A DNA stretch of 64,000 nt from an uncultured Muribaculaceae bacterium (GTDB lineage: Bacteria; Bacillota_I; Bacilli_A; RF39; UBA660), in contig CAZHOG010000005.1 in the NCBI GenBank assembly GCA_964533935.1, positions 6,402-70,401 on the forward strand, given 5' to 3'. Positions 5,761 through 56,669 of the stretch are shown piece by piece; positions within the stretch are counted from its first letter, which is position 1; every line of letters starts with the position of its first letter. Position numbers and translations under genes: made by a program. A model generated the notes under the pieces. That model made no database searches, was not told the origin of the DNA, and saw nothing but the letters and a program-made list of their open reading frames with translations.

Positions 5761-6161
5761 TGAATATTGATATTTTTAAAAGATTTAATATAAAAAAAAC
5801 TAAACAAAGAGAAGCGATTTATGCTATAATAGCAAACACTGAAAAAGATATGTCTTTAAAAGATATTATTAGTCAGGCTAAAGATATCAATAATTCAACT
5901 GTTTATAGAATTATTGATTTGTTTGTAGAAAAAAAAATAATTTTTAAAAGAATTAGTTCTAAAAATGAAATTTTTTATGAAGTAAATTCATTGGAAGATA
6001 AGCATTATATTAAATGTGTTAAATGCCATAAAAAAGAAGAAATAGAAATGTGTCCTATTTCAGATATTGATTTAAAAGGTTTTAAAATTATAAATCATGA
6101 TATAGAAATAAATGGTATATGTAATGATTGTTATTCGGAGGGGAAAAATGGAAAATTATAG
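5760..6161 (+). CDS. Fur-family metal-responsive transcriptional regulator (Fur/Zur/PerR-like)
   Basis: TKQREAIYAIIANTEKDMSLKDI is the N-terminal winged HTH. KHYIKCVKCHKK...CNDCY supplies the structural-Zn CxxC pairs. The start overlaps the permease stop, consistent with an operon. Confidence 0.7.
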   Translation: MNIDIFKRFNIKKTKQREAIYAIIANTEKDMSLKDIISQAKDINNSTVYRIIDLFVEKKIIFKRISSKNEIFYEVNSLEDKHYIKCVKCHKKEEIEMCPISDIDLKGFKIINHDIEINGICNDCYSEGKNGKL

Positions 6162-6885: not shown

Positions 6886-6936
6886 GAGCAAAATAATTAA
6901 TTATATGATAAAATCAAAAAAGAGGGCGTGGTTAAA

Positions 6937-7548
6937 TTGAATAGTTTTATGTTTTATGATAGAAATTTTACATATGTATATAATAAGGATAATGAATATG
7001 TTTTTTCATATAAGTTAAAAAATATATATTTTGATAATAGAATTTTAAAAATAAATATGGATGAAAATAAAAAAATATTGGGAATAAAAATAATTGATTT
7101 TTTACCAAATAATGCAAAATCTGTTGTTACTGTTGATCGTTTGGAAAATAATTATTTTGATATAAAATCATATTCTAATTTATATGAAGAAATTATTATA
7201 GATGATGAATTCCATTATAAAGATATGAATGTTAAATGTCATACAATGATAGATGAAAACATGAATAAAGATTTTTTTGAAGTTGAATTGAGAAAAAATG
7301 GTAGTAAAAAAATAATTAAATTATTACAAGATAAACAATTAAATTATATTTATTTTGATGCTAAAGAATTGAGAGAAAAAGCGGATCACATTTCAATAGA
7401 TTCTTTAGATAATTTTAGAATTATATCAAAATCTATTCAGTGGATTGATGTTTTTTCAAATTTTGCAGTTAATGCATTTAAAAATTTACAAAGTCAAATT
7501 GATGAAGTAGATATAGATGAAATGAAATTAGAACGTAAGAACAGTTAA
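6937..7548 (+). CDS. Hypothetical protein (about 203 aa)
   Basis: Open frame from 6928. The RBS AGAGGG at 6921-6926 favours the TTG at 6937 as start. No family recognised. Confidence 0.45.
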   Translation: MNSFMFYDRNFTYVYNKDNEYVFSYKLKNIYFDNRILKINMDENKKILGIKIIDFLPNNAKSVVTVDRLENNYFDIKSYSNLYEEIIIDDEFHYKDMNVKCHTMIDENMNKDFFEVELRKNGSKKIIKLLQDKQLNYIYFDAKELREKADHISIDSLDNFRIISKSIQWIDVFSNFAVNAFKNLQSQIDEVDIDEMKLERKNS

Positions 7549-7642
7549 ATAACTGTTTTTTTATTTTGAAAAATTAAAATATTGTTAAAATATTGTTTTT
7601 GATTTTTAAATTTGATATAATTCTTTTTGAGGAGGAAGTAAA

Positions 7643-8437
7643 ATGAAAAAGATTAAATATTTATTATTAACATTGGCTATGTTAATTATAATCCCATTTA
7701 ATACACAAGCTGCTTCAAAAGAACCAATAAATGTTCATATTTTTAGAGGAGAAGGATGCGGATATTGTGCTGCAGCATTAGAATTTTTTGATAGTATTGA
7801 AGACGAATATGGTCAATATTTTAACTTAGTAGAGCATGAAGTATGGAATGATACTGATAATGCTACATTAATGACAGAAGTTGCTTCATATTTTGGTGAA
7901 ACTGTTAATGGTGTTCCATATATTGTTATTGGAGAAAAAACTTTCCAAGGATATACTGAAAGCTATAATGAAGAAATTAAAACTGCAATTAAAAATTCTT
8001 ACGAAAGTGGAAATTTTGTAGATGTAGTTGAACAAGTTCAAGGAGGAGCTACTTCTGGAACAAAATCTTCAAAAAATGATAAAGATAGTAATACAACTTC
8101 TATTATAATTATTGGAGCTGCTTTAGTTGGTTTCGCTGCATTAGTATATTTTGCAAGAGACACTAAAGATGAAGATGAAGAAATCATTGAAGAAGTTAAA
8201 GAAGAAAAAGTTATTGTTGAAGAACCTAAAAAAGTTGTTTCTAAAACAACTTCTAAAAATACAACAACTAAAAAATCTACACCTGCTGCAAAATCTACTT
8301 CAACAGCTGCTAAAAAAACAACTACAACTACTAAAAAAACAACTAGTAGTAATGTTAAAAAGTCAAATACAACAAAGAAAACTACAACTCCAAAAAAGAC
8401 TACTACAGCAAAAAAAACTACAACAACTAAAAAATAA
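7643..8437 (+). CDS. Secreted and anchored thioredoxin-fold protein (CGYC active site) with a C-terminal TM helix and a Thr/Lys-rich tail
   Basis: Signal peptide MKKIKYLLLTLAMLIIIPFNTQA, then a FRGEGCGYCAAALEFF thioredoxin/glutaredoxin-like CxxC. A TM helix IIIIGAALVGFAALVYFA is followed by an acidic stretch and KKTTTT(K) repeats. RBS GGAGG. Confidence 0.65.
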   Translation: MKKIKYLLLTLAMLIIIPFNTQAASKEPINVHIFRGEGCGYCAAALEFFDSIEDEYGQYFNLVEHEVWNDTDNATLMTEVASYFGETVNGVPYIVIGEKTFQGYTESYNEEIKTAIKNSYESGNFVDVVEQVQGGATSGTKSSKNDKDSNTTSIIIIGAALVGFAALVYFARDTKDEDEEIIEEVKEEKVIVEEPKKVVSKTTSKNTTTKKSTPAAKSTSTAAKKTTTTTKKTTSSNVKKSNTTKKTTTPKKTTTAKKTTTTKK

Positions 8438-8451
8438 CAATCATTTGATTG

Positions 8452-9045
8452 TTATTTTTTTAATGTGTTATATAAGTCTATTCCTGCACATATTATCATC
8501 CAAACACCTAATATTGTAAGTATAATGTTTTGAAAAAATATTGTATATAATCCCATTATAATAACTATAACTGCTTCAATTATATTTAAATTGGCAGTTT
8601 TTTTATCAATTAAGTAAAGATTTGAAATGCCAATTAATTTTGTAATTCCTGTAATTAGTAACCATATTCCGATAATTAAATTTAAGAAGGTTTGAATAAT
8701 ACTAGAAAGCAATATTATTAATAAGCCAATAGCTATGGCAATAATGCCGGTATTTAACGCGATTGTATTTTCAATTTTTAATTGATTTTTTAATTGAACA
8801 TATTTAATAATATTATATATTCCAAATCCTGTAATAAATGCTCCAATAATATAACAAGCATATATAATTACTGTATTTGAATTGGTAAGAAATATTACAC
8901 CTATCAATCCCATTAATATAGGAGAAATAAAATTTTTATTTTTACTAAATTCTTCTTTAAATTTCTTTCCATCATATTGTTTCTTTTTTGATTTAGGCTT
9001 AATTATTTCAACATCTTTTTCTTCAATCGTTTTTATAAAAATCAC
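8452..9045 (-). CDS. HdeD/DUF308-like polytopic membrane protein
   Basis: 197 aa with repeated hydrophobic helices (GLIGVIFL..., GAFITGFGIYNI..., IAIGLLIILL..., GIWLLITGI..., GVWMIICAGIDL) as in the HdeD family. Confidence 0.45.
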   Translation of the reverse strand: MIFIKTIEEKDVEIIKPKSKKKQYDGKKFKEEFSKNKNFISPILMGLIGVIFLTNSNTVIIYACYIIGAFITGFGIYNIIKYVQLKNQLKIENTIALNTGIIAIAIGLLIILLSSIIQTFLNLIIGIWLLITGITKLIGISNLYLIDKKTANLNIIEAVIVIIMGLYTIFFQNIILTILGVWMIICAGIDLYNTLKK

Positions 9046-34338: not shown

Positions 34339-35403
34339 ATGAGACTAATAGGAATCAATGATAAAAGAAATATTAGCTATAAAAAAATATTGCCTTTATT
34401 ATGCTTGGGAATAATTGTGTTATCTATTATAGTATTCTATAAATCTTATGCAATTTATCAACTTGAAAATGATTATGAAGTAATTAATTCTAAAATTGGT
34501 AATTACACTATGGGTGATATAAGAATAATGACAGTTGTGGATGGAAAAGAGACTGAATCATTTCCTACATATGAATCTAATTATTTAATGACAAATATTG
34601 AATGTACTAATGGACTAAATGCAACTTGGGATGCAGTCAATTGGAGATTAGCAATTGAAAATATTTCCAGTGATAATTCTAAATGTACTATTTATTTTGA
34701 TAGTACTAAAAAGAATTCTGAAAAGCCAATAAATTATAGCCAATCAGCTTTATTAAATAATGTAGAAGATAGCAAAAATACAACTATTAAAAATATAAAA
34801 CAAAGTGTAATTGAAAAAATATATCCTATTGGAAGTATATATTTAAGTACTACTGATGACACAATAGATAGTGTTGCTAATAAATTTGGGGGAACTTGGA
34901 TTAAGTATTCTGAAGGTGCATCATTGATAAGTTCAGACTCAAATTATTCAATTAACTCAACTGGTGGATCTGATATTGTAACTTTAGCATCAAATAATAT
35001 CCCATCACTTAAATTAACAGGTACTACAAATTCAACAGGAAGTGGTTATTCTATAGGATATACTTATGCAAATAGAACTGTTAGTTCTTGGAGTGGGGCA
35101 CATACTCATAATATATCAAGGGAATTTGGGACAACTACAAATCTTGCTACATCCCCAGAAAGTGAAACGTATTCACAGTTATCTGGTTCTAGTGCTGCAA
35201 CGAGAGTTTGGTCAAGTTCTCCAATATCAGCTACAACGATAACAGTATCTGGACAAACTGTAACTGAATACTTTGCTAATAGTATTTCTGGAGTTGCATC
35301 CCATTTTCATACATTTACAGGAAATTATACTAATAATTCTACAAAAAGCATTAATATTAAAAATCCATATACGTCAGTATATATGTATAAAAGAATAAAA
35401 TAA
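34339..35403 (+). CDS. Membrane-anchored phage tail-collar domain protein (MdpB/COG4675-like), paralogue A
   Basis: N-terminal TM helix. C-terminal IYPIGSIYLSTTDDT...KFGGTWIKY...NSTGGSDIVTL..NIPSL...WSGAHTHN matches tail-collar domain blocks. RBS AGGTGA. Confidence 0.55.
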   Translation: MRLIGINDKRNISYKKILPLLCLGIIVLSIIVFYKSYAIYQLENDYEVINSKIGNYTMGDIRIMTVVDGKETESFPTYESNYLMTNIECTNGLNATWDAVNWRLAIENISSDNSKCTIYFDSTKKNSEKPINYSQSALLNNVEDSKNTTIKNIKQSVIEKIYPIGSIYLSTTDDTIDSVANKFGGTWIKYSEGASLISSDSNYSINSTGGSDIVTLASNNIPSLKLTGTTNSTGSGYSIGYTYANRTVSSWSGAHTHNISREFGTTTNLATSPESETYSQLSGSSAATRVWSSSPISATTITVSGQTVTEYFANSISGVASHFHTFTGNYTNNSTKSINIKNPYTSVYMYKRIK

Positions 35404-35424: not shown

Positions 35425-36468
35425 ATGAAAAAAAATATTTCTTTAAAACAAATGACATGTTTCTTCATATGTGCATTTGTATTTTTATCACTTGTTGTAA
35501 TATATAAGTCTTATGAGATTTCTTTATTAAAAAATAAATATAATAACATAGAAAAAGTTATTAATAATACATATGATTTTTCCAATCAATTAGCAGTTAC
35601 AGTTGATGGACAAGAAACAAGTTCATTTCCAACTAAAGATTCAAATTATTCTGTAAAAAGTATAGATTGTACTAATGATGTTGTGGCAAAATGGGATAAT
35701 GAAAATTGGAAATTAGTAATAGATGATATGTCAGCAACAAGTACAAAATGTACTGTTAATTTTAAAACTGGTATATCTAGTCAAAACGATATTGCATTGT
35801 ATTCTAAAGAAGATCTTTTAGCATTAAATAGTGAATATCAAGATATGGCTGTTGATACTGTAAAAAGTTCGATTATAGATAGTATATATCCAGTAGGAAG
35901 TATATATATGAGTACTACTGATGATACAGTTGATATAGTTAAAGGAAAATTTGGAGGTACATGGGTTAAATATGCTCAGGGTACTACTCTTATTGGTGCA
36001 ATCTCAACTTATGCAGCTAATTCAACAGGTGGAACAAATAGTATTTCACTTACACAATCTAATATTCCTTCTTTAAGTATGACAGGAACAACTGATTCAA
36101 CAGGAAGTGGATATTCTATAGGATATGGATCTTCTAGTAGAGGAGTTAGTCCATGGAGTGCTTCTCACGGACATAGTGTATCAAGGGAATTTGGTATTAA
36201 TGCAAATTTAAATATTAATCCTGCTTCAGAAACATATGCTCAAATAGCTGGAACTAATGCGTATACAAGATCATGGAGTTCAAGTCCGATATCATCAACA
36301 ACTATTACAGTATCTGGACAAACAGTTAGTGATTATTATGCAAACAGTATAAGTGGAATTCAATCTCATAGTCATACTTTTACGGGAAATTATACTAATA
36401 ATTCTCAACAAAATATTAATGTTCAAAATCCATATACAGCTGTATATATGTATAAAAGAACGGCATAA
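35425..36468 (+). CDS. Membrane-anchored phage tail-collar domain protein, paralogue B (tandem duplicate of 34339-35403)
   Basis: Same architecture and collinear motifs (IYPVGSIYMSTTDDT, KFGGTWVKY, NSTGGTNSISL, NIPSL, WSASHGHS) with about 50% identity to paralogue A. RBS AGGTGA. Confidence 0.55.
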   Translation: MKKNISLKQMTCFFICAFVFLSLVVIYKSYEISLLKNKYNNIEKVINNTYDFSNQLAVTVDGQETSSFPTKDSNYSVKSIDCTNDVVAKWDNENWKLVIDDMSATSTKCTVNFKTGISSQNDIALYSKEDLLALNSEYQDMAVDTVKSSIIDSIYPVGSIYMSTTDDTVDIVKGKFGGTWVKYAQGTTLIGAISTYAANSTGGTNSISLTQSNIPSLSMTGTTDSTGSGYSIGYGSSSRGVSPWSASHGHSVSREFGINANLNINPASETYAQIAGTNAYTRSWSSSPISSTTITVSGQTVSDYYANSISGIQSHSHTFTGNYTNNSQQNINVQNPYTAVYMYKRTA

Positions 36469-36568: not shown

Positions 36569-37474
36569 GTGGATTTTGATATAAAAAAAATCATTAGTCA
36601 AATAAATCATAAAAATCTATTTTTAAGAATTGTAATAACTTTGATTGGAACAATCCTTCTAGCTATGAATTATAATTTATTTTTAGATAGTAATAATTTA
36701 GTTATAGGTGGATTAAGTGGTTTAGCAATTATTTTCAAAAAATTATTTTCTTGGAATTCAACAATATTTATTTATGTTTTAACTGCTGTATTAATAATCA
36801 TTGGATTATTCCTACTAAATAAAGAAGAAATATTTAAGGGATTATTTGTTTCATTATTATTTCCATTTTTTATAACATTTACTGCTCCATTATGTACAAT
36901 ATTATTAAAATATATTGAATTTAATGACAAGATATTAATTGCTTTAGCATCTTCTTTATTATTTGGTTTTGCTAATGGTATTATTTATCAAGCTGGATTT
37001 AATACTGGTGGATCAGATGTTTTAATGAAAATAATTAACAAATATGGAAAAATTACTGAGGGAAAAGCAACGTTTGTAATGAACATCGCAATTATTTTAC
37101 TTGGTGGAATTGTATTTGATATAAATAATGTTGCTTATTCTGCAATAATATTATATTTAAGTACTATTATTATTGATCGTATGTTAATTGGAATTTCTAG
37201 AGCAAAAATGTTTTATATTAATACAAACGAAATTGATAAAGTTAGACAATTTATTTTAGAAGAATTAAAAACAGGTGTAACAATAATTTCAACTGAAGGT
37301 GGATATTCTAATAAAAAAGGAAAACTTTTAATGTGTGTTGTAGATAGTAAAGATTATTATATGTTTAGACAAGCAGTGTTAGAAATTGATCCAAAAGCGT
37401 TCTTTATTATTGATGACTGTTATGAAGTATCTGGTGGATATAAAAGAGAAAGAATCAATTTGTATGAGAGGTGA
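36569..37474 (+). CDS. YitT family membrane protein (DUF161 + DUF2179)
   Basis: GGLSGLAIIFKKLF and a second GG...GGSDV repeat, plus a C-terminal DUF2179-like soluble domain. GTG start after AGAGGGTGA. Confidence 0.65.
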   Translation: MDFDIKKIISQINHKNLFLRIVITLIGTILLAMNYNLFLDSNNLVIGGLSGLAIIFKKLFSWNSTIFIYVLTAVLIIIGLFLLNKEEIFKGLFVSLLFPFFITFTAPLCTILLKYIEFNDKILIALASSLLFGFANGIIYQAGFNTGGSDVLMKIINKYGKITEGKATFVMNIAIILLGGIVFDINNVAYSAIILYLSTIIIDRMLIGISRAKMFYINTNEIDKVRQFILEELKTGVTIISTEGGYSNKKGKLLMCVVDSKDYYMFRQAVLEIDPKAFFIIDDCYEVSGGYKRERINLYER

Positions 37475-37478
37475 AAAA

Positions 37479-38180
37479 ATGAAGTTAATTAGTATTGAAA
37501 ATTGTTATAAAGTATATAAAAATGGAGTGACAGCTATTGCTGATTTATCTTTAGAAATAGATAAAAAAGAATTTGTTTTTATAATTGGTGCTACCGGTTG
37601 TGGAAAATCAACTTTAATTAAAATGCTTTATCGAGAAGAAAAACCAACTAAAGGAAAAATTAATGTTGGGGGAATTGATGTAGCTAAATTACGTAATAGT
37701 AAAGTATATAAATTAAGAAGAAAATTAGGAATAGTTTTTCAAGATTTCAAATTGCTTCCTAAATTAACTGTTTATGAGAATGTTGCTTTTGCTCTTGAAA
37801 GCATTGGTATGAAGGATAAAGATATAAGACCTAAAGTATTAGAAGCTTTAGATAAAGTTGGACTTAAAGATCGTTCTAGAAGTTATCCTAGAGAATTATC
37901 TGGTGGTGAACAACAAAGAGTATGTATTGCTAGAGCAATAGTTAATGAACCTAAGATTCTTATATGTGATGAACCAACTGGTAATTTAGACCCAATTACA
38001 TCTAAAGAAATTATGAAGATACTAGAAAAACTAAATAAAGAATATGAAACAACTGTTGTAATGGTTACACATGATAGTGAAATAGTTAATAAAATGAAAA
38101 AAAGAGTTATTTTATTAGACAACGGTGTATTGGTTGGAGATTATTTGAAAGGAAGTTATAAAGTACATGAAAATATTTAG
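37479..38180 (+). CDS. ftsE: Cell division ATP-binding protein FtsE
   Basis: Walker A GATGCGKST, ABC signature LSGGEQQR, Walker B ILICDEPT. Followed by ftsX. Confidence 0.85.
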   Translation: MKLISIENCYKVYKNGVTAIADLSLEIDKKEFVFIIGATGCGKSTLIKMLYREEKPTKGKINVGGIDVAKLRNSKVYKLRRKLGIVFQDFKLLPKLTVYENVAFALESIGMKDKDIRPKVLEALDKVGLKDRSRSYPRELSGGEQQRVCIARAIVNEPKILICDEPTGNLDPITSKEIMKILEKLNKEYETTVVMVTHDSEIVNKMKKRVILLDNGVLVGDYLKGSYKVHENI

Positions 38181-39060
38181 ATTTTTAAAAAGAAGTATTA
38201 GAGATTCATTTAAAAGTGTATTTCGTAATTTTAGTTTAAGTGTTGCTGCAATCGCATGTACAACAATAACTCTTATTCTAGTAGCTGTATCAATAGTAAT
38301 ATCATATAATGTTTCATCTATTACACAAGAATTAGAAGATGAATTAACAATTGTTGTATATTTGAAAAAGGATGTTACTGATGAACAAATAGATAGTTTA
38401 AAAACAAACATTGTTCAAATGAAAAATGTTGAAGATGTAGAATTTAAAGACAATGATGAATGGAAATTAGAAATGCAAGAATATTCTGAAACTTATAAAA
38501 CAGCATTAGAATATTTAGATGAAAATCCATTATTGGATTCATTTGTAGTAAAAGTTAAAAATGTAAATGATTTAAAAGAAACAGCAGATAATATTAGAAG
38601 TTATGAATTTGTAGAGAGTGCAAGTTATGGAGAAGGCATGGTAGAAAATATCATAACAATCTTTAATATTGTAAAAAAGATTACTCTAGCTATAGTTATA
38701 TCATTAATTTTTGTAACAGCATTCTTAATTAATAACACAATTAAATTAACAATCTTTTCTAGAAGAAATGAAATTGAGATAATGCGTTTAGTTGGTGCAA
38801 GTAATATGACCATTAAACTACCATTTATGTTTGAAGGATTCTTTTTAGGAGTTCTAGGTAGTATTATTCCTATTTTTGTTACAATATATGGATATGTATT
38901 ATTATTTGATCACTTTAATGGTTATTTAGTTTCTCAAATGATTACATTAGTTAAACCATTTAATTTTATATTATTTGTTTCATTAATTATTTTAGCAATT
39001 GGAACATTAATTGGAATGTTAGGAAGTTATAGGGCTGTTAGAAAGTACTTGAAAATATAA
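38167..39060 (+). CDS. ftsX: Cell division permease-like protein FtsX
   Basis: The typical FtsX N-terminus MKIFRFLKRSIRDSFKSVFRNFSLSVAAI and four TM helices. It overlaps the ftsE end. Confidence 0.85.
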   Translation: MKIFRFLKRSIRDSFKSVFRNFSLSVAAIACTTITLILVAVSIVISYNVSSITQELEDELTIVVYLKKDVTDEQIDSLKTNIVQMKNVEDVEFKDNDEWKLEMQEYSETYKTALEYLDENPLLDSFVVKVKNVNDLKETADNIRSYEFVESASYGEGMVENIITIFNIVKKITLAIVISLIFVTAFLINNTIKLTIFSRRNEIEIMRLVGASNMTIKLPFMFEGFFLGVLGSIIPIFVTIYGYVLLFDHFNGYLVSQMITLVKPFNFILFVSLIILAIGTLIGMLGSYRAVRKYLKI

Positions 39061-40283
39061 TGAATAAATATTTCAAAAAATATATTTCATTAACATTAGT
39101 TTTATTATTTACTTTTAGTTTTTTACTAAGCCCTATAAGTGTTAATGCAGCAACGAAAGATCCTCAAACATTAGGTGATTTAAAAGATCAACTTGCAGCA
39201 TTAAAAAAGCAAAAAAGTGATAATGATGCTAATCAAAAATATACCCAAGCACAAATAAATGCAAGAGAACAATCAATTAGAAATGCAGAATCAGAAATAT
39301 CACAAGCACAAGCAGATATGGAAGCCGCTGAACAAAAGATTGATGAATCAAATACTAAAATAGATTCATTAAAAAATGAAACACAAAAATTATTAAAATT
39401 ATTACAACAATTAAAAAGTCAAAATGCTTATGTAGAATATATTTCTGGTGCATCAAGTATTACTGATTTAGTAATGAGAACAAATGCAGTTGAACAAATT
39501 ACTTCATCTAATCAAGACTTTTTAAATCAATTAGAACAATTAATAAAAGAAAATGAACAGTTGAAAATCGATTTGCAATCCAAACAAAAAGATTTAGAAG
39601 TAAAAATAACAAATTATCAAGCAACAATTAAAAGTTTATATGGTAACTTAGAATCTTATGATAAGTTTGCTTTAGACATAGATACTCAAATTAAGACTAT
39701 GCAAAATCAGGTTAATTCATATGTTAAATTGTGTGCAAGTAGTTCTAAGAGTTATTTAGGTGATAATGAATTATTAACAGATTGTACTAATGTGCCATAT
39801 AACGCTGGATGGTTAAAACCACTTAAAAAAGGTGTTACAACTAGTACTATCGGAACTCGTTGGGGTTCATATCATAATGCATTAGATATTGGTGGTAATA
39901 CAGAAGGAACTCCTGTTTATGCAGCAGCAGCGGGAACAGTTTCAGGTATTATCTGGAGATATAGATGCGGCGGTAATATGTTATACATCAATGTTACAGT
40001 TGGTAATAAAAAATATACAACTTACTATTATCATTTACTTACTATTAATGTAAGTTATGGTCAAACAGTAACTCAAAATACAATAATTGGAACTGTAGGT
40101 GGTGGATCAACAGCTGCATCTAAGGGTGGCTATGATTCATGTACAACAGGAACCCATTTACATTTTGGAGTAGCAAATGGCTATTATACTGGTAGTATAA
40201 GTAAGAGTAAAGTAATTACACCACCAGGATTCCCAAATTCTAAAGGTTATAGATTTAATTCAAGAACTGATTATTACGGATAG
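39060..40283 (+). CDS. Coiled-coil + M23 peptidase (EnvC/FtsEX-partner-like)
   Basis: Signal peptide, a long coiled-coil (QLAALKKQKSD...), and a C-terminal M23 domain (HNALDIGG...YYHLL...GTHLHFGV). It directly follows ftsEX. Confidence 0.75.
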   Translation: MNKYFKKYISLTLVLLFTFSFLLSPISVNAATKDPQTLGDLKDQLAALKKQKSDNDANQKYTQAQINAREQSIRNAESEISQAQADMEAAEQKIDESNTKIDSLKNETQKLLKLLQQLKSQNAYVEYISGASSITDLVMRTNAVEQITSSNQDFLNQLEQLIKENEQLKIDLQSKQKDLEVKITNYQATIKSLYGNLESYDKFALDIDTQIKTMQNQVNSYVKLCASSSKSYLGDNELLTDCTNVPYNAGWLKPLKKGVTTSTIGTRWGSYHNALDIGGNTEGTPVYAAAAGTVSGIIWRYRCGGNMLYINVTVGNKKYTTYYYHLLTINVSYGQTVTQNTIIGTVGGGSTAASKGGYDSCTTGTHLHFGVANGYYTGSISKSKVITPPGFPNSKGYRFNSRTDYYG

Positions 40284-40344: not shown

Positions 40345-42783
40345 ATGAACAATAAAAAAGGTTTTACACTTGTTGAACTAATGGGTGTTATTGTTATTTT
40401 AGCAATCATTATAGCAATAGCTATCCCTTCATACAATTTAATAACAAAAAATATAAAAGCAAAAAATCTTGAGAATCAAAAAGAATTAATTAAAGTTGCA
40501 GCAGTTAAATATGCTGAGGATGCTAATATCTATTTTATGTATCCAGAAGATTTAATTAAACAAGGATATTTAGAAGAAAAAGATATTGATCCATCTTTAA
40601 AATGTAGTATTTACCAAGTAAAAGATGATAAAGGATTGTTATATGCTGTTGAAATAAAAGAAAGTAATTCTGAAAATGAATCTTGTAATCAAGAATTATT
40701 AGCAAAATACGATGATAACATAAGAATTGAAATGAAAACGGTTACTGATAAAGATATTAATAGTAATACAAATTATTGGACTAATGAAGATGTTAAATTG
40801 TCATTCGAGTGGAATGAATCAGATAAAGGAACAATTAAAGAAGAATCTATTCAGTGGTATAAAGGTGATGAAATTATTGCTGGTACAAATAGTTATTCAT
40901 ACATAGTAACTGTGCCAACAACTGCAAAGCAAGAGCAACTATATAAAGTTAAATTAACAGCTACTAAAGATGGACAAGACATAGAATATACTGGAATGAA
41001 GTTTGTTAAAATAGATAAAAAGAATCCAGAATTTTATAACAATGCAGTTACTCCATCTGGTGATTGGCAATCATCAAAAGATTATTCAATAAATGCTTAT
41101 GATAACGAATCAGGGTTAAAGGGCTATTGGAGTGGAGTAAATACTACTGAAGATTGTCCAAATGAACAATCACAATATAGTAGTAAAAAAACGTTTAAGT
41201 TTGAAAATACTGCTTTTGATAAAGCTAATCTTAAAATTTGTATTATGGATAATGCTGGTAATGTAAAAAGTATTGAGCAAGAAATAGAAAAAGTAGATGG
41301 AATACAGCCTTCTTGCCAAATATTAGTTAATGGCCAACCAGCTGAAAACAAATGGTATATTGGAAATCAAATGACAGTTAGTACCAAATCAAGTATAACA
41401 AATATAAGTGGAACTAATTGGGGAATTTCAAATAACAATAGTGAAGTTAATTATAATGAAAAATCTATAATCGAGAATTCAAATATTACTAGTAAATCAT
41501 ATTATGGTTTTATAAAAAGTGGTGCTGGATTAACTAATACATGTAATGCTACAGTTAAATATGAACATGATATAACTGCACCAGTAATATCTGGATCATC
41601 TTCAAATTATAATTCAATAACTGCCACATATAATACTGGTTCTGCAATAAGTGGCATAAAAAATACTACATGTCATTTAACTGATGCTAATGGAAATATT
41701 AAATCAAATGGAACATTAAATAGTAATGGAAGTTGTACTTTCTCTGTTCCAGCTACAAGTGCAAATTCTATATATTATTTTAAAAAATGTATAACAAGTA
41801 ATGCAGGTAATAGTATTTGTTCAACAGTTTCTTCTAAAACAACTGTAGGATATTGTACAAGTGGAAATTATACAACAAGTATAGTTAATAAATCTTATAC
41901 ATCAAGTTGTCCAGCATGTGGAAGTGGAACAAGAAATTATACATATAATGAAAAATATACTTCAAAATATAATAATTTATCATGTGGAAATTCTGGCACA
42001 AAATCTTCTAGTGAAACATGTTCTGGTTTACCATCATGCTGTTCATCTACTCGTGCAAGTTATGGTAATTATGGTGGCTGCTCAGCAGTTTGTGGAACCG
42101 GTTCACAAACTAGAACTGTAAATTATTATTCAAACTATGATGGAAGTTTCTGCGGTTCTGCACAACAATCATCTTCTTGTAATACACAAGATTGTTGTTC
42201 AAAAACCCATATAGGAAGTTATAGTGGATATGGTTCATGTTCTGTAGGATGTGGCGGTGGATTAATGTATAGATCTGCATATTATTATTCGGATTATGAT
42301 GGAAGATATTGTAGGACTGCATCAGAAGGGGCACTATGTAATACTCAGAGTTGTATTCCTCCATCTCAAGTGATTCCTGGAACACCAAGCGGTGGAAGTT
42401 GTGAATGTACTAATGCATGGACTTGGAGAATGATGAGATATAATGGTGAAGGATTCTGTTCAGGAGGATCATTTACAAGTCAATGGATTAATTTTGGACA
42501 ATATACACGTCTTACAGGAACTATATATGTAGCATCTTCTTCTAGCGAAAGTGGAGTAAGATGTATCTTTGGATTAGATAATAATCCAAATGATGAAAGT
42601 AATGTTTTATTCCCAATTTTAGATGTATCTACTACAAGCACTTCTTGGGCAGGATATAATTATGATTATAGAATTCCAGCTGGAGCTAAAACTAGTTTAT
42701 TTACTAAGGCAATCTGCTACCATACTGGAAATGCTGAATCATCATCATTTGAAATGGGTCAAATGACAGGACATCATGATTAA
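40345..42783 (+). CDS. Large (812 aa) type IV pilin / pseudopilin-like protein with C-terminal thrombospondin type-1-like Cys repeats
   Basis: The N-terminus MNNKKGFTLVELMGVIVILAIIIAIAIP is a class III prepilin signal with the G|FTLVE cleavage/methylation motif. The C-terminal region has three about 46-aa repeats with CSxxCGxGxxxR...C...CNTQxC. RBS AGGTGA. Confidence 0.75.
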   Translation: MNNKKGFTLVELMGVIVILAIIIAIAIPSYNLITKNIKAKNLENQKELIKVAAVKYAEDANIYFMYPEDLIKQGYLEEKDIDPSLKCSIYQVKDDKGLLYAVEIKESNSENESCNQELLAKYDDNIRIEMKTVTDKDINSNTNYWTNEDVKLSFEWNESDKGTIKEESIQWYKGDEIIAGTNSYSYIVTVPTTAKQEQLYKVKLTATKDGQDIEYTGMKFVKIDKKNPEFYNNAVTPSGDWQSSKDYSINAYDNESGLKGYWSGVNTTEDCPNEQSQYSSKKTFKFENTAFDKANLKICIMDNAGNVKSIEQEIEKVDGIQPSCQILVNGQPAENKWYIGNQMTVSTKSSITNISGTNWGISNNNSEVNYNEKSIIENSNITSKSYYGFIKSGAGLTNTCNATVKYEHDITAPVISGSSSNYNSITATYNTGSAISGIKNTTCHLTDANGNIKSNGTLNSNGSCTFSVPATSANSIYYFKKCITSNAGNSICSTVSSKTTVGYCTSGNYTTSIVNKSYTSSCPACGSGTRNYTYNEKYTSKYNNLSCGNSGTKSSSETCSGLPSCCSSTRASYGNYGGCSAVCGTGSQTRTVNYYSNYDGSFCGSAQQSSSCNTQDCCSKTHIGSYSGYGSCSVGCGGGLMYRSAYYYSDYDGRYCRTASEGALCNTQSCIPPSQVIPGTPSGGSCECTNAWTWRMMRYNGEGFCSGGSFTSQWINFGQYTRLTGTIYVASSSSESGVRCIFGLDNNPNDESNVLFPILDVSTTSTSWAGYNYDYRIPAGAKTSLFTKAICYHTGNAESSSFEMGQMTGHHD
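41893..42354 (+). repeat. Three tandem coding repeats (about 138 nt each) encoding TSP1-like six-Cys modules inside the pilin-like gene
   Basis: Protein repeats are SCPACGSGTRNYTY..., GCSAVCGTGSQTRTVNYYSNYDGSFCG...CNTQDC and SCSVGCGGGLMYRSAYYYSDYDGRYCR...CNTQSC. Confidence 0.6.
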
Positions 42784-51344: not shown

Positions 51345-53327
51345 TTATTCTGTTGTTGAATCATTACTATCGCTTGTTGTATCACTAACTATAGGAATTT
51401 CAGAAATAATATTTTCTTCGGTTTTAGGCGTTTCAGTTGTAGTAGTAGTATTTGTATTACTTTCATTATTATCAGTTGTATTAGACTCTACTACATTAGG
51501 AGCTGTTTCTTGAACATTACCACCTAATTGAATATTAATAGTGGAAATAGCTTTTGCTAAAACTCCTGAATGAATACTTTGTGCAGTTACCAAACCACCA
51601 ACTCCTGAAGTAGTAATGGTAACACCATTTGCTGCTCCCCAACTTCTTACATAAGCTTCTGTACTTCCAGTAAAGTCTGGAACTAATTGAAGCTTAGCAC
51701 CTGAAGTAATTCCTTTTCCAGTAACACCTGCTTCATAGTTTTCACCATAAGTATAATTAAATGTTTTTACAATTTCTTTTTGTTCAATACCTAAATTAAC
51801 TTTCATTAACTTTTTAATAGCTTCTAAACTATCTGGATAATAACTTAATGCTGAAGTATAAGAATTACTTCCTTGCATAAATACAGGTAGTGTATAGCTT
51901 TCTAAATATGTTTTATGAATTGTAACGAAATCGTCTCCGTTTAAAGAGTTACCTAACATATCTTTTAAAACATTATAGAATGATAAAATTTGTTTAGTAC
52001 TCATATTAGTTGAAATATTTTTTGATATTGCATCAAGTGCACTTTCAAATTTATCAAAAGATTTAAGTTGTATAACTTTTTTAGATACAGCTTCTACAAT
52101 TTGTTGTTGGTGTCTATTTCTTGCAATATCACTCTCTAAAAAGCCATGTCTATTTCTTGCATATGCAAGTGCTTGTTCACCGTTTAAATGTTGCCATCCA
52201 GTATCCATACATACAAGATTGGTTGTATCCCTTAACGAATTACTTTCACATAATTTGCCTTCACCATGAACTTTAACATAATAATCATAATTTGGTTGCT
52301 CAACATCTACATCAACACCACCTAAAGTTTCAACTAAATCTATGAAACCTCGGAAATTAATTTTTGCATAATAATCAATATTAACATCAGTCAACTGTTT
52401 AATTGTATCTATAACGCAACTTGTTCCATATGCAGCAGATGAATTTATTTTATTATATGCATTATGATTGCATGCAATTGGGACATAAGTATCTCTTGGA
52501 AAGCTCATCATTGTTGCTGTTAATGTTTTAGGATTAAATGTAACAAGTATTAAAGTATCACCGTTAAATGCAGCATTAGCATTTAAACCGTCTCCTTCAG
52601 AATCAACTCCCATAACCAATACAGTAAAGGGTTCAGTTAAACTCTTTGTAGCAACTAATTCATTATCTTTATTTTCCATTTTTTTACTATATTCATAAAC
52701 AACTTTTGTTTCGCTATCTATATTTTTATAAGCATCTTCATTAGCAAATAAAATAACATAATTATTAGAAACAAATATTCCATCTATTTCCTTATTATAT
52801 AATGCAGCTAGCATTGAATAATAATCTTCATAATAATTTATTTCATTTTTTAATTTTTTATTCTTTATTAATTCTTTAGCAAGAACATGTCCTTCAATAG
52901 CTTCTTCATTTTCAATCATTCCTAGTTTACTATCTGAAGTTATTTCAGTATCACTAAGAGCAATTAAATTAGTTGTATATAAAGTATACTTAGAAGTAGA
53001 TAATTTATCTATTTTTCCATAAAACTTATTAATAGTATAACTTCCAAATCCAAAAACACCTGCTAATAAAATGGTAATTATCGCTGTTATAACAAGAGTT
53101 TTATTTCTTTTAGTAATTAAGTTAACTAGATTCCATATGAAATATACTAATAACCAAACTATAAAAATTATCATTAGAACAATTCTTAAAACTGTTTCTA
53201 TTCCCTCTAGATTTAATAATCCTTTTATAAAGAAAATTAATGTTATTAAATATCCTAAAAAAGCAATAATATATAAACTTAATAATACTTTATTACTTTT
53301 TTTAATCTTATTAAAAAGTACTTTCAT
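51345..53327 (-). CDS. LCP (LytR-CpsA-Psr) family cell-wall glycopolymer transferase
   Basis: ATG at 53327 follows GGGAGTG. TM helices, then the LCP core FTVLVMGVDSEGD...GDTLILVTFNPKTLTATMMSFPRDTYV and a C-terminal extension. Confidence 0.75.
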   Translation of the reverse strand: MKVLFNKIKKSNKVLLSLYIIAFLGYLITLIFFIKGLLNLEGIETVLRIVLMIIFIVWLLVYFIWNLVNLITKRNKTLVITAIITILLAGVFGFGSYTINKFYGKIDKLSTSKYTLYTTNLIALSDTEITSDSKLGMIENEEAIEGHVLAKELIKNKKLKNEINYYEDYYSMLAALYNKEIDGIFVSNNYVILFANEDAYKNIDSETKVVYEYSKKMENKDNELVATKSLTEPFTVLVMGVDSEGDGLNANAAFNGDTLILVTFNPKTLTATMMSFPRDTYVPIACNHNAYNKINSSAAYGTSCVIDTIKQLTDVNIDYYAKINFRGFIDLVETLGGVDVDVEQPNYDYYVKVHGEGKLCESNSLRDTTNLVCMDTGWQHLNGEQALAYARNRHGFLESDIARNRHQQQIVEAVSKKVIQLKSFDKFESALDAISKNISTNMSTKQILSFYNVLKDMLGNSLNGDDFVTIHKTYLESYTLPVFMQGSNSYTSALSYYPDSLEAIKKLMKVNLGIEQKEIVKTFNYTYGENYEAGVTGKGITSGAKLQLVPDFTGSTEAYVRSWGAANGVTITTSGVGGLVTAQSIHSGVLAKAISTINIQLGGNVQETAPNVVESNTTDNNESNTNTTTTTETPKTEENIISEIPIVSDTTSDSNDSTTE

Positions 53328-53494
53328 ATAGTCACTCCCAATTATTATCATTAGTACCAAGTATATCATATTTTCTTTTAAATTAATACTTGTTATTTTA
53401 TTAACAATTTATTGACATTTTTTTCATTTTGAATCAAAATAAATGACAAAATATGATATAATTTTACTAGATAATATGGGAAGGAATGATAAAT

Positions 53495-55276
53495 ATGAAA
53501 TTTACTAAAAAAATAATATATTTTATATTTCTTTTTATTACATTATTCCCATTAACTGTAGATGCAGCAAGTTATTACGGAGTTTCAACTGGTTCTGGTG
53601 TTTCTATTAGAAATGCTGCTGGTAAAAGTGGAACAGTGTTAGATTACGCATCTTTAGGAGAATTATATGATATGCCAAATAATATATTATATCCTGATGA
53701 TAGTAAACAAGGATGCCCAAATGGCTGGTATCAAATTTATTATAAAGATTCTAAAGTAGGATATATATGTTCTAATTATTTGAAAATATATGAAAAAGCA
53801 GAGAGTGTTACTGATTCAACAACACCAACAACTGATTGTGAGAGACAAATGCAACAAGCTGGTTTTCCATCAAGTTATTGGAATGGATTATGTTCTTTAA
53901 AAGCAAGTCACTCAAATTGGAATTTTCAAGCAATGGTAAAAGATGCAAATGGAAATACAATAGATTGGAATCAATCAGTATATTCTGAAAGCAGTTGTGG
54001 TGCTAATTATATAAGTACTTCAAATGATTCTTATAAATCTACTACATGTACAAAAAGTGGTGATGCTGGATATTCACCTGTATCAGAAGAAGCAGTTAGA
54101 TATTATATGAATCCAACCAACTTCTTAAATGAAGTTAATATATTTATGTTTGAATCACAAACTACTAATCCAAATATTTCTCAAGATGTATATAAAACTG
54201 CATCAACAAAGATATTTGGCAATAATTTCTTGATTTCACAAATTCCTTTAATTCCTGAATATATTAAAAATTCATCAAATGAAACTGGTGTAAGCCAAAT
54301 TGCATTGGCAACAAGAATAAAACAAGAATTAGGAAATGCTAAGTTAACTTCAGGAACTTATAGTGGCCAATTATATTCTGTAGTTAGTGGTGACTATACT
54401 TCTAGATACAATTGGACATACAATAATCAATCAGTAGATAATTATTACAACTTCTTTAATGTTGCAGCATATGACGGAAGTAATGTTACTCAACAAGCTT
54501 TGATTTATGCATTAAATCATGGTTGGGGTGGAACAGGTGATCAAAATAATGATAGACAAATAGCAATGACTGGTGGGGCTAACTTCTTGAAAAATAAATA
54601 TATTGGTGCTGGACAAAATACAATATATTTTCAAAAATTTAATATATTTCCTACAAACACATCTTCAAGATATTTAAATCAATATATGACTAATATTCAA
54701 GCACCAGTAAGTGAATCAAGTATAGTTTATAATGCTTATAAAGCAGCAAATGTTTTAGATTCAAGCTTTACTTTCTATATTCCAGTATTCTCTGGAATGA
54801 ATGTTAATTCTTCAAGTAGTAATGATTCAAGTAATCAAGAAACAAATAGTAAGCCTTCAGTAAGTACAATAGTAACGTCTTCCGGTTTCAGATATGCTGA
54901 TGGTTATATTTCAAATATTAATCCAGGAACTAACATAAATGATGTTAAGAGTGCTTTAGAAAGTAAAGGAGCATCTGTTACTATTACTAATGCAGATGGA
55001 AATGAAGTATCGGGGAATATCGGTACTGGGTACAGAATAAATATTAATGGAAGCAATAGTGAAACATTAATAGCAGTTATTTATGGAGACGTATCAGGTG
55101 ATGGTAATATTAATGCACTTGATTTATTAAAAGTTCAAAAAAATATATTAGGAACAGCAACATTAAATGGTTCTTCTAAAGTTGCAGCAGATCCTAGTAA
55201 AGATGGTAATATAAATGCTTTAGATTTATTAAAAATTCAAAAACAAATTTTAAATACTGGAAACATTGAACAATAG
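53495..55276 (+). CDS. Secreted SH3b + glucosaminidase-like peptidoglycan hydrolase with a C-terminal type I dockerin
   Basis: Signal peptide. An SH3b-like segment YYGVSTGSGVSIRNAAGKSGTV...GWYQIYY. A central glucosaminidase (PF01832)-like region. A C-terminal duplicated Ca-binding dockerin repeat GDVSGDGNINALDLLKVQKNILG ... DPSKDGNINALDLLKIQKQIL. Confidence 0.65.
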   Translation: MKFTKKIIYFIFLFITLFPLTVDAASYYGVSTGSGVSIRNAAGKSGTVLDYASLGELYDMPNNILYPDDSKQGCPNGWYQIYYKDSKVGYICSNYLKIYEKAESVTDSTTPTTDCERQMQQAGFPSSYWNGLCSLKASHSNWNFQAMVKDANGNTIDWNQSVYSESSCGANYISTSNDSYKSTTCTKSGDAGYSPVSEEAVRYYMNPTNFLNEVNIFMFESQTTNPNISQDVYKTASTKIFGNNFLISQIPLIPEYIKNSSNETGVSQIALATRIKQELGNAKLTSGTYSGQLYSVVSGDYTSRYNWTYNNQSVDNYYNFFNVAAYDGSNVTQQALIYALNHGWGGTGDQNNDRQIAMTGGANFLKNKYIGAGQNTIYFQKFNIFPTNTSSRYLNQYMTNIQAPVSESSIVYNAYKAANVLDSSFTFYIPVFSGMNVNSSSSNDSSNQETNSKPSVSTIVTSSGFRYADGYISNINPGTNINDVKSALESKGASVTITNADGNEVSGNIGTGYRININGSNSETLIAVIYGDVSGDGNINALDLLKVQKNILGTATLNGSSKVAADPSKDGNINALDLLKIQKQILNTGNIEQ

Positions 55277-55286
55277 GAGGATAAAA

Positions 55287-56669
55287 ATGAGAAAACTAAA
55301 AAATATAATTATTACGTTGGCAATAGCATTTGTTATATTTCCATTAACTGCAAATGCTGCAAGTGCTAATATAGGAATAAAAACTAGTGGTAAAGCTGTA
55401 GTTGGTGGACAAATAACTGCAACAGTAACAGTTTCTTCAGGAAGCCCAATGGGATCTTGGCAATTTTTAGTAAGTTATGACTCTAGTAAATTAAAACTAA
55501 CTAGTGGAACAACATCAGTTGCTGACTATACTACAAGTGCTTCTGGCGTAAAGAGTAAAAGTTATACTTTAAAATTTACTGCTTTATCTAGTGGAAATGC
55601 ATCAATAAATGTTGGCAGTTACTTAGTTTATGCAATAGATGAATCACAAATGTCAGTAAGCCCATCCAATGCCAGCGTGAAAATAATTACTCAAGCAGAA
55701 TTAGAAGCTTCATATAGTAAAGATAATAATTTAAAAGGATTATCTATTGAAGGCTATGAATTAACACCTGCATTTGATAAAGATACATTAGAATATTCAG
55801 TTACTGTTCCATCAACAATTAATAGTGTTAATATTAATGCTGTTAAAAATGATTCAAGTGCATCTGTTGAAGGTGCTGGCGAACATTCTGTAATTGAAGG
55901 AAGTAATCCCTTTGAAATAGTTGTTACAGCACAAAATGGAAGTTCAAAAACTTATAAATTAAATGTCATTGTTGAAGATATTAAACCAATAGAAGTTAAT
56001 ATTGGAAATGATAAATATACAGTTGTTAAAAGAGCTGATAATCTTGAAAAACCTACTGGTTTTGAAGAAACAACAGTTACTATTAATGAATTAGAAATAC
56101 CTGCTTTTAAAAGTGAAATATTAGGTTTAACTTTAGTAGGAATTAAAGACGAATCTGGAAATATTAGTTTAGCCATTTATGATAATGGAAAATACTCATT
56201 ATATAACGAATTGACATCTAATAATAATACAATTTATTTATTGGATTTAAAAAAACTTGATGGATTTATAAAAACTACTATTAAAATAAATAATATAGAT
56301 GTAGAAGTTTATAAATTTGACAAGAATTCTAAATATTCATTAGTATATGGAAAAAATGTAGAGTCTGGTGAAGAATCATGGTATATGTATGATGCAAAAG
56401 AAAATACATTCCAAAGATATAATACAGAACAAATAGATTCATTAAATAAAACTATTGAAAATTATTTATATGTAATATATGCATTAGCTGGATGCTTTGG
56501 ATTAATTGCTTTATGCTTTATAATTAATTGTATTGGTAAAAAGAAAGCAAAAAATAAAAGAAAAAAACAAATGAAATTAGAAGAATCTAATAATGAAAAT
56601 AAAGAAATAATTGAAAATTTATTAGAGGAAAAGAAAAATAAAAAGAATAAAAAAGATGTTTCTAAATAG
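55287..56669 (+). CDS. Membrane-anchored cohesin domain protein (cohesin + cadherin-like beta-sandwich + C-terminal TM)
   Basis: Signal peptide. The cohesin-like module IGIKTSGKAVVGGQITATVTVSSGSPMGSWQFLVSYDSSKLKLTSG...ASINVG. A cadherin-like domain LKGLSIEGYELTPAFDKDTLEYSVTV. A TM helix plus a KKKAKNKRKK tail. GGAGG RBS. Confidence 0.6.
   Translation: MRKLKNIIITLAIAFVIFPLTANAASANIGIKTSGKAVVGGQITATVTVSSGSPMGSWQFLVSYDSSKLKLTSGTTSVADYTTSASGVKSKSYTLKFTALSSGNASINVGSYLVYAIDESQMSVSPSNASVKIITQAELEASYSKDNNLKGLSIEGYELTPAFDKDTLEYSVTVPSTINSVNINAVKNDSSASVEGAGEHSVIEGSNPFEIVVTAQNGSSKTYKLNVIVEDIKPIEVNIGNDKYTVVKRADNLEKPTGFEETTVTINELEIPAFKSEILGLTLVGIKDESGNISLAIYDNGKYSLYNELTSNNNTIYLLDLKKLDGFIKTTIKINNIDVEVYKFDKNSKYSLVYGKNVESGEESWYMYDAKENTFQRYNTEQIDSLNKTIENYLYVIYALAGCFGLIALCFIINCIGKKKAKNKRKKQMKLEESNNENKEIIENLLEEKKNKKNKKDVSK

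Follow-up and report, generated by a model that had tools for sequence, protein, structure and literature searches.

For Ruminococcus bicirculans, a non-cellulolytic gut Firmicute, a one-sentence remark in Ze et al. 2015 (PMC4611034), citing Wegmann et al. 2014, describes a single cohesin and a single dockerin tied to a GH73 enzyme. Here we describe a gene pair that corresponds to this description at locus scale, located at positions 53,495 to 56,669 of a 64,000-nucleotide stretch of DNA (contig CAZHOG010000005.1 of assembly GCA_964533935.1, positions 6,402 to 70,401) from an uncultured bacterium; we refer to this whole stretch as the window. Gene 1 (53495-55276, forward strand; ATG at 53495, TAG at 55274-55276) has 593 codons plus a stop and encodes a predicted secreted protein with an SH3b domain, a GH73-like domain and a dockerin, and gene 2 (55287-56669, forward strand; ATG at 55287, stop at 56667-56669) has 460 codons plus a stop and encodes a membrane-anchored cohesin stalk protein. 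The window organism differs from R. bicirculans in belonging to another class, the Bacilli, and the likeness between the two is one of description only, drawn from that single remark. Literature searches that combined these lineages with dockerin, cohesin and GH73 recovered no account of the module, of a membrane-anchored stalk or of its distribution. The pair is not unprecedented; it adds an instance from another bacterial class to a type of arrangement that has been noticed but never studied, and what we add is evidence that it constitutes a widespread, strictly 1:1 and co-diverging module that is present also in a culturable organism. We think it somewhat probable that the two products would form a 1:1 surface tether that holds an autolysin on the producer's own wall in a housekeeping role.

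The better-known users of these parts are the cellulosome and amylosome of Clostridium thermocellum (CipA) and Ruminococcus bromii, with which the window locus has in common a symmetric type I dockerin, the cohesin fold, and the plan of an enzyme plugged into a cell-bound scaffold. It departs from them in three respects: there is one cohesin and one dockerin and no multi-enzyme scaffold, the predicted cargo is a peptidoglycan hydrolase rather than a polysaccharide-degrading enzyme, and the anchor is a C-terminal transmembrane helix rather than an S-layer homology (SLH) domain or a sortase signal, with no carbohydrate-binding module (CBM) among the window genes scanned. More broadly, none of the approximately 37 window proteins scanned matches a cellulolytic or plant-polysaccharide family (glycoside hydrolase or CBM), in agreement with a first-pass annotation of this DNA, which had seen no cellulolytic context in the window. 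The gene pair is not a cellulosome.

Relatives of the two genes are numerous, and they occur together. Gene 2 has 1,623 relatives at E ≤ 0.001 among the candidates scored, gene 1 has at least 686, with a dockerin in nearly all of the 120 matches listed, and a scan with one genome per species places gene 2 relatives in 420 species-level genomes. Eighty-seven loci were fetched in all, of which 80 were kept as species representatives out of the 420 genomes. In every one of the 87 loci (87/87) the gene 2 relative is directly preceded by a co-oriented relative of gene 1, with a small gap or overlap between the two genes kept across loci, and in 80 of the 80 species representatives the gene immediately upstream carries a dockerin. 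These 80 loci are from metagenome-assembled genomes of the human and animal gut and are labeled as uncultured Bacilli, Tenericutes, Mycoplasma sp. CAG:472 and CAG:776, Clostridium sp. CAG:524, Erysipelotrichaceae and Candidatus Onthocola, labels which fit the reduced-genome gut orders of Bacilli discussed in PMC10868615, with the lineage in each case being taken from the label only. When family hidden Markov models (HMMs) built from the loci are run against 88 sources totaling 985 kb, a count that is made at the scale of loci, there is exactly one dockerin open reading frame in each of the 88 and exactly one cohesin open reading frame in 82 of them; one locus (L079) has a second cohesin match, and the family cohesin model finds no match in five loci that carry the variant cassette described below.

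The pair is not restricted to the Bacilli. Vescimonas fastidiosa MM35, a cultured human gut member of the Oscillospiraceae, a family of the Clostridia, carries a homologous pair on its 861-kb second replicon (NZ_AP023416.1, 503342-506849; positions 5224-8731 of our locus L088), and this replicon has one dockerin only. The upstream protein, WP_212821509.1, has an SH3b domain, a GH73 domain with an intact HQYATD motif and a dockerin, and it is encoded 10 nucleotides upstream of the second protein, WP_212821511.1. The latter combines a cohesin-like module with a cadherin-like domain, the membrane-proximal domain known from gene 2 and a transmembrane helix, and it ends in a cytoplasmic tail that is long, acidic and proline-rich, not basic. 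A homology search from the Vescimonas protein returned no R. bicirculans name among the matches listed. RefSeq labels the two Vescimonas proteins as 'dockerin type I domain-containing' and 'cadherin-like beta sandwich domain-containing'. The neighbors of the Vescimonas pair are cobalamin and ABC-transporter genes, and the LCP and glycopolymer genes that flank the window pair are absent there. As the same pair is thus found in a different class and in a different neighborhood, it is the two-gene pair that is the conserved unit. The first-pass annotation had noted an LCP gene and a glycopolymer locus at the flanks, and these are indeed present on the two sides in the window, but they are not an obligatory part, and this neighborhood does not belong to the conserved unit.

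The dockerin and the cohesin also appear to have changed together. In a mirror-tree comparison across 74 species the dockerin and cohesin distances are correlated with r of 0.70, and the partial correlation is 0.385 when three other domains are controlled for (permutation p 0.001); the corresponding partial values for the dockerin are 0.067 with the cadherin-like domain, 0.019 with the membrane-proximal domain, and 0.216 with the catalytic domain of its own protein. Dockerin divergence therefore tracks that of the cohesin better than that of any other domain. Within the dockerin, the residues of repeat 1 and repeat 2 are identical at positions 9, 10, 11 and 15 in 78%, 92%, 83% and 68% of species, respectively, compared with 31%, 32%, 50% and 22% expected if the repeats changed independently, and the concordance at the other variable dockerin positions is far weaker. 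A dual binding mode directed at one cohesin would be expected to preserve symmetry of this sort. There is in addition a hint of charge pairing between the partners: when position 15 is Lys or Arg in both repeats, cohesin residue 119 is Asp or Glu in 29 of 31 species, and otherwise in 14 of 41; none of the 49 comparable gene 2 columns is associated more strongly (p 2e-7 in a naive Fisher test that ignores phylogeny).

A further line of evidence comes from a variant lineage (loci L004-L007 and L076), in which gene 1 shares no more than 29-36% identity with its counterpart in the window (at L004:4278-5990, L006:273-2003 and L076:4245-5996). Its catalytic domain appears to be circularly permuted, with the C-terminal lobe of GH73 (GGAxFI...GQxTSYLKKFN...HQYMAN...PLEFSIPVF) placed N-terminal to the lobe that bears the catalytic Glu; this residue and the dockerin persist, and the recognition pair of the latter is Ser-Ala. 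The corresponding gene 2 relatives (L004:6001-7305, L006:2018-3355 and L076:5974-7308) begin with a shorter, divergent cohesin-like domain of about 105 residues that has a conserved pair of Cys residues and no Pfam match, and that hhalign relates to the family cohesin (probability 91%, E 1e-6). The cadherin-like and membrane-proximal domains of these same proteins are 60-76% identical to those of the window (70-76% in L006 and L007). Because gene 1 and the N-terminal module of gene 2 are divergent while the rest of gene 2 is similar, the hydrolase, the dockerin and the cohesin have been replaced together.

These observations bear on an alternative in which the two proteins do not bind one another at all, gene 2 being an adhesin or a wall stalk, the dockerin serving as a calcium-binding stabilizer, as a wall binder, or as the ligand of some other partner, and the genes being adjacent for other reasons. 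Cadherin-like domains do occur in adhesins, and many non-cellulosomal dockerins reportedly have no known cohesin partner. This account nonetheless leaves unexplained the strict 1:1 adjacency in every locus and across two classes, the co-divergence of the dockerin with the cohesin but with none of the remaining domains of gene 2, the concerted change of the recognition positions in both repeats, and the swapping of the cassette as a unit, and we consider it unlikely. The comparative evidence (adjacency, one pair per locus, specific co-divergence and joint cassette replacement) supports the minimal 1:1 hydrolase tether that the first-pass annotation had proposed.

The dockerin itself (55082-55273, forward strand) is a type I module with two near-identical calcium-binding repeats, recognized by Pfam, by matches to the Protein Data Bank (PDB) and by its fold. 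It matches Dockerin_1 (PF00404) with E 6e-13 and 49.2 bits against a cutoff of 22.9, bearing out the earlier assignment of a duplicated calcium-binding dockerin at the C-terminus of gene 1. Each repeat has 22 residues and consists of an EF-hand-like calcium loop (Asp or Asn at positions 1, 3, 5, 9 and 12) followed by a helix; the first loop is DVSGDGNINALD at 55088-55123 and the second is DPSKDGNINALD at 55190-55225. The first-pass annotation had described a D-x-S-G-D-G repeat occurring twice, which holds for the number of repeats but not for the motif, as the second reads D-P-S-K-D-G. Across 78 species there is next to no variation at loop positions 1, 5 and 12, and the model of gene 1 places the dockerin helices at residues 541-552 and 575-585. 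Among PDB entries the dockerin matches 2ccl_B by sequence (E 3e-9), and its fold is that of the C. thermocellum Xyn10B dockerin (2ccl_B, TM-score 0.95 with a root-mean-square deviation of 0.8 Å; 1ohz_B, TM-score 0.94). The recognition pair at positions 10-11, the classical specificity positions of type I dockerins, is Ala-Leu in both repeats.

The partner module forms the N-terminal domain of gene 2, following a predicted signal peptide of 24 residues (55287-55358, forward strand) with likely cleavage at ANA|A and a helix at residues 2-17 in the model. The cohesin module (about residues 25-135; 55359-55691, forward strand) is identified by Pfam on the isolated domain, by the family profile and by Foldseek. 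Scanned alone, the domain matches Cohesin PF00963 with 28.3 bits against a cutoff of 24.1 (E 2e-6), and this family is not among the matches at E ≤ 0.01 when the whole gene 2 protein is scanned; the homologue in locus L035 scores 30.0 bits in a whole-protein scan, and PF00963 is precomputed in many other gene 2 homologues. The gene 2 family profile matches ScaB of A. cellulolyticus and other cohesins with E values reaching 9e-8. The AlphaFold2 (AF2) model of gene 2 has a pLDDT of 85.5, and Foldseek relates it, with probability 1.0 for each of the structures named here, to the cohesin-FN3 structure of C. perfringens GH84C (2w1n, E 7e-7) and to the ScaB dyad 3l8q. Against chains containing a single cohesin the TM-scores are 0.63 for CaCohA2 (6kgf_A), 0.68 for C. 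perfringens 2vo8 and 0.63 for A. fulgidus 2xdh, with further Foldseek matches to 2jh2 (0.64) and to R. flavefaciens 5n5p_A (0.67). Both an HMM match and a cohesin fold are thus found for the cohesin-like beta-sandwich that the first-pass annotation had proposed. The module is short, at about 115 residues, and the sequence alignments span mainly strands 1-4; an hhalign comparison with cohesin 2 of C. thermocellum CipA likewise aligned only strands 1-4. RefSeq calls the relatives of gene 2 'cadherin-like beta sandwich domain-containing protein', an annotation in which the cohesin is missed.

Non-cellulosomal cohesins and dockerins are known from Clostridium perfringens, where toxin complexes of GH84C/NagJ and NagH link secreted host-glycan-degrading enzymes to each other, and where the cohesin is part of an enzyme. 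The structures of these complexes (2w1n, 2jh2, 2vo8 and 2ozn) are among the best fold matches of the gene 2 cohesin, and they share with the window locus a non-cellulosomal setting; they differ from it in having neither a membrane stalk nor a peptidoglycan hydrolase.

Beyond the cohesin, gene 2 continues with a cadherin-like beta-sandwich (PF12733; 55722-55982, forward strand), the sole Pfam match of the whole protein (E 1e-12) and a domain that had been named from the letters alone, and then with a beta-rich, membrane-proximal domain of about 150 residues (55983-56441, forward strand) that is specific to the family. The latter has no Pfam or PDB sequence match. A search with it finds 888 representative clusters, 414 of them at E ≤ 1e-10; in the full-length proteins among the 150 matches listed it lies at approximately residues 215-410 of proteins that are 404-690 residues long. 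A C-terminal transmembrane helix (residues 393-417; 56463-56537, forward strand) is the only strongly hydrophobic segment of the protein past the signal peptide, with the hydropathy maximum at residues 394-396 and lying inside a long helix (380-451) of the model, and it is followed by a basic tail with 17 Lys or Arg in 43 residues (56538-56666, forward strand), which the positive-inside rule suggests to be cytoplasmic. Anchoring by sortase or to an S-layer was considered and rejected, as there is no LPxTG motif and no SLH match; the first-pass annotation had likewise read a signal peptide, a C-terminal membrane anchor with a basic tail, and neither of these other anchors. Gene 2 is a type I membrane protein, and the predicted topology has the cohesin at the outer tip, two beta domains forming a stalk, one transmembrane helix and a cytoplasmic tail.

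The hydrolase body of gene 1 also begins with a predicted signal peptide of 24 residues (53495-53566, forward strand), with likely cleavage at VDA|A and a helix at residues 2-16 in the model, and the N-terminus as read from the sequence has no lipobox Cys and no transmembrane anchor. Since the protein thus carries a predicted export signal but nothing that would fix it in the membrane, it is presumably exported by Sec and released. An SH3b-like domain follows (about residues 27-100; 53573-53794, forward strand). The Pfam SH3_3 match in the window protein is below threshold (23.3 bits, cutoff 27), and the assignment, also made by the first-pass annotation, is upheld by PF08239 being precomputed in many gene 1 homologues, by matches of the family profile to the SH3b structures 2kq8, 4krt and 2krs, and by fold matches of the gene 1 model (pLDDT 86.1 with AF2) to 9ovi and 2kt8 at TM-scores of 0.73-0.76; it belongs to a type of SH3b domain that binds peptidoglycan. 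Between the catalytic domain and the dockerin there is a small beta/alpha spacer domain (about residues 455-527; 54857-55075, forward strand), defined by secondary structure in the model and by comparison of domains across loci.

The central domain of gene 1 (about residues 112-432; 53828-54790, forward strand) is an N-acetylglucosaminidase-like domain of the GH73 fold, an assignment that rests on PDB profile and fold matches and not on Pfam. The single sequence matches the glucosaminidase of S. aureus Atl in the PDB with E 4e-7, and a profile of 44 members matches SagB (6u0o/6fxp, E 6e-12), Atl (6fxo, 3.5e-10) and AtlE (1e-9). Foldseek relates the model to SagB (6fxp, E 4e-10, TM-score 0.67) and to AtlE (TM-score 0.71-0.72), and further to the SagB-SpdC complex, Atl, Acp of C. 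perfringens and pneumococcal LytB. The domain is closest to S. aureus SagB, Atl and AtlE. Pfam Glucosaminidase (PF01832) has no match in gene 1, including in the isolated central region at E ≤ 10, so that the glucosaminidase-like domain named in the first-pass annotation stands by fold and PDB profile but not by the Pfam family that it had pointed to.

The putative catalytic general acid is Glu278 (in IKQELGN; codon 54326-54328, forward strand), which is invariant in 44 homologues and also in the circularly permuted variants, and which falls on SagB E155 in a HMMER alignment, although that stretch of the alignment is weak when taken alone; E155 is the catalytic Glu of SagB (bioRxiv 10.1101/2020.05.21.109470). 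The motif NQYMTN (54677-54694, forward strand) aligns with SagB as the counterpart of the HQYATD of GH73, with the Tyr kept and the Asp replaced by Asn; Y397 is invariant among the gene 1 homologues and N400 is at least 90% conserved. YATD reads YMTN throughout the Bacilli subfamily, whereas the Vescimonas orthologue retains HQYATD, and the change may mark an altered catalytic mechanism or specificity. One might accordingly suppose that gene 1 is catalytically dead or has another specificity, acting as a tethered peptidoglycan binder or sensor, or on the neighboring wall glycopolymer, and both the lack of a PF01832 match and the YMTN motif point in this direction, as does the proximity of the pair to LCP and glycopolymer genes in many Bacilli loci. 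Yet Glu278 persists even where the domain is permuted, the Tyr of the motif does not vary, the orthologue with the intact motif has no glycopolymer neighbors, and the overall fold matches GH73 with a TM-score of about 0.7, such that we view a loss or redirection of activity as improbable.

The relationship to SagB is informative as to what the stalk might do. In S. aureus the membrane protein SpdC positions the GH73 glucosaminidase SagB and controls the site at which glycans are cut, and SagB works only when it is positioned by this membrane partner (bioRxiv 10.1101/2020.05.21.109470). Among proteins of known structure, SagB is the nearest relative of the catalytic domain of gene 1, and in both cases a membrane partner positions, or in ours is predicted to position, the hydrolase. 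The means are different, however, in that SagB has its own transmembrane helix and binds, inside the membrane, a polytopic protein that resembles CAAX proteases, whereas gene 1 has a cleavable signal peptide only and gene 2 is a single-pass protein with beta-sandwich ectodomains. The resemblance is an analogy in logic, with homology limited to the catalytic domain.

In the surface tether that we favor, both proteins would be exported, with the hydrolase having no anchor of its own. The gene 2 cohesin would receive the dockerin, probably in the presence of Ca2+ and with two orientations possible, and the SH3b domain of the captured hydrolase would engage peptidoglycan. A soluble hydrolase would in this way be held on the surface of its producer, at a distance from the membrane that is set by the stalk, and the tethered enzyme would cut the cell's own glycan strands for wall growth, for the release or trimming of strands, or for cell separation. 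The tether would keep a dangerous enzyme local and limit its reach. Its control logic would be that of SagB-SpdC or FtsEX-PcsB, realized here with components known from cellulosomes. We favor a housekeeping role because the closest solved relatives of gene 1 are all autolysins and because SagB requires a positioning membrane partner.

The same tether could instead display a weapon, a bacteriolysin that cuts the peptidoglycan of neighboring cells, either to compete with them or to scavenge amino sugars. Lysozyme-like enzymes that bear dockerins are on record from rumen metagenomes (PMC6487960), and complexes directed against bacterial walls have been suggested in a review (PMC6403190), with microbial competition being the role proposed for such enzymes in these two sources; scavenging would be plausible for gut organisms with small genomes and limited metabolism (PMC10868615). 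We regard this as quite unlikely for the pair described here, which is present in one copy and has stayed at the same place in a housekeeping envelope locus over hundreds of species; moreover a short stalk lying under or within the producer's own wall would be poorly placed to reach other cells, and SagB, Atl, AtlE, Acp and LytB, the closest structural relatives of the enzyme, are all autolysins.

Several points weigh against an own-wall tether and should be set beside the evidence in its favor. The statistics on dockerin and cohesin covariation ignore phylogeny, and as the coding sequences of the two modules are only about 100 bp apart, linked recombination alone could give both their co-divergence and the cassette swap; the concerted change of the repeats and the charge pairing are harder to explain in this way than are the mirror-tree result and the swap. 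The top mutual-information pair, joining dockerin position 10 with cohesin L95, is not counted as evidence: we dropped L95 as a contact residue since HMMER alignments with ScaB put its strand (KSYTLKF) at cohesin strand 7, probably outside the canonical 8-3-6-5 binding sheet. The counts of one dockerin and one cohesin apply at the scale of the loci. As to the enzyme, its activity is what we infer from sequence, the missing PF01832 match and the Asn in place of the YATD Asp in the window subfamily both count against it, and its substrate could be the producer's own wall or foreign peptidoglycan.

If the tether reading is correct, then cohesin-dockerin pairing has a housekeeping use besides polysaccharide degradation, that of keeping a dangerous autolysin at a fixed place. 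A more specific version, which we hold as tentative and rather doubtful, is that the plug on its rigid stalk would act as a molecular ruler, presenting a SagB-like glucosaminidase at a set height and so setting the site at which nascent strands are released or trimmed; the pair would then be a conserved and important component of how gut Firmicutes of two classes assemble their walls, with its specificity co-evolving by lineage. Were this so, it would represent a third and unrelated form of membrane control over a peptidoglycan hydrolase, after SagB-SpdC and FtsEX. The FtsEX systems, with PcsB or CwlO, are similar in that they keep a secreted wall hydrolase under the control of a membrane complex that holds it, and different in that they act by ATP-driven, coiled-coil activation of an endopeptidase, with no cohesin or dockerin parts and no sign of passive tethering. 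The pair is present in several hundred mostly uncultured, reduced-genome gut species, and its presence in at least one cultured anaerobe, V. fastidiosa MM35, makes experiments possible. Further, the lineage-specific recognition pairs (Ala-Leu, Ile-Leu, Ile-Arg, Ile-Val, Ile-Lys and others) constitute a natural 1:1 set whose members may not cross-react, and which could serve protein engineering and the study of how binding specificity evolves.

The two genes are co-oriented in DNA of 25% GC and are separated by 10 nucleotides, with a strong ribosome-binding site for gene 2 (AGGAGG, 55275-55280, forward strand) that overlaps the gene 1 stop codon; they probably form one operon. The first-pass annotation had given gene 2 its own ribosome-binding site directly downstream of gene 1, and its gene coordinates prove to be exact, with every feature that it named found where it had placed it. 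A scan for promoters and terminators is uninformative in DNA of this composition, giving 30 promoter-like sites against 32 by chance, and a promoter-like TTGACA-17-CAAAAT at 53412-53440 is not counted as evidence.

Upstream of the pair and divergent from it is a gene for an LCP-family glycopolymer ligase (51345-53369, reverse strand; Pfam LytR_cpsA_psr E 5e-43 and NCBIfam LCP models), whose product spans the membrane several times in its N-terminal region, gives a PASTA-like match at the C-terminus (E 4e-4) and has a tail rich in Thr, Ser and Asn. This combination of LCP and PASTA is also seen in two related loci (L002 and L004), and synteny shows an LCP gene adjoining the pair in many Bacilli loci. 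Downstream of the pair lies a glycopolymer locus encoding a hexapeptide acyltransferase, an O-antigen-ligase-like protein, a GT4 enzyme of the WecA/TagO type, a GT1 enzyme, Alg14- and Alg13-like proteins and GtrA, and farther upstream are NusG, a flippase of the MurJ/Wzx type, ClpP and WhiA. The window also has FtsE, FtsX and a PcsB-like coiled-coil M23 peptidase in a row (37386-40283), which are a second, classical membrane-controlled peptidoglycan hydrolase system and which indicate that the organism makes peptidoglycan. The setting of the pair is a core cell-envelope and housekeeping region, which counts in favor of the tether that we propose.

Deeper lineages show additional rearrangements of gene 1. 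In these, for example in L035 (4549-6744) and L049 (4516-6711), a Cadherin-like domain (PF12733) lies between the GH73 domain and the dockerin, and in some of them (L049, but not L035) there is a second SH3b domain in this interval as well; most of the deeper lineages have no recognizable gene 1 spacer domain. We note that in these deeper lineages both partners share the stalk-type cadherin-like domain.

Some records that match gene 1 come from phage collections. One of these, MT836697.1 (our locus L089), is a human faecal contig deposited as phage that contains the full pair of hydrolase-dockerin and cohesin-stalk genes, and eight further phage-collection records match gene 1, MT836697.1 being the one inspected. 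An origin of gene 1 as a phage endolysin was rejected, given the stable chromosomal synteny and given that the phage matches are faecal contigs labeled 'UNVERIFIED Bacteriophage sp.'; those 'Bacteriophage sp.' contigs that bear the pair are probably bacterial and mislabeled.

Elsewhere in the window, two adjacent paralogues of about 350 residues (34339-35403 and 35425-36468) match the C-terminal domain of the phage baseplate protein Gp10 (E 7e-10 and 3e-13), with no other phage genes noticed nearby. At 40345-42783 there is a gene for an 812-residue protein, unusually large for a pilin or pseudopilin, whose N-terminus carries a prepilin-type methylation motif (N_methyl, E 5e-8) and which also has a sub-threshold match to a TSP1_spondin-like domain.

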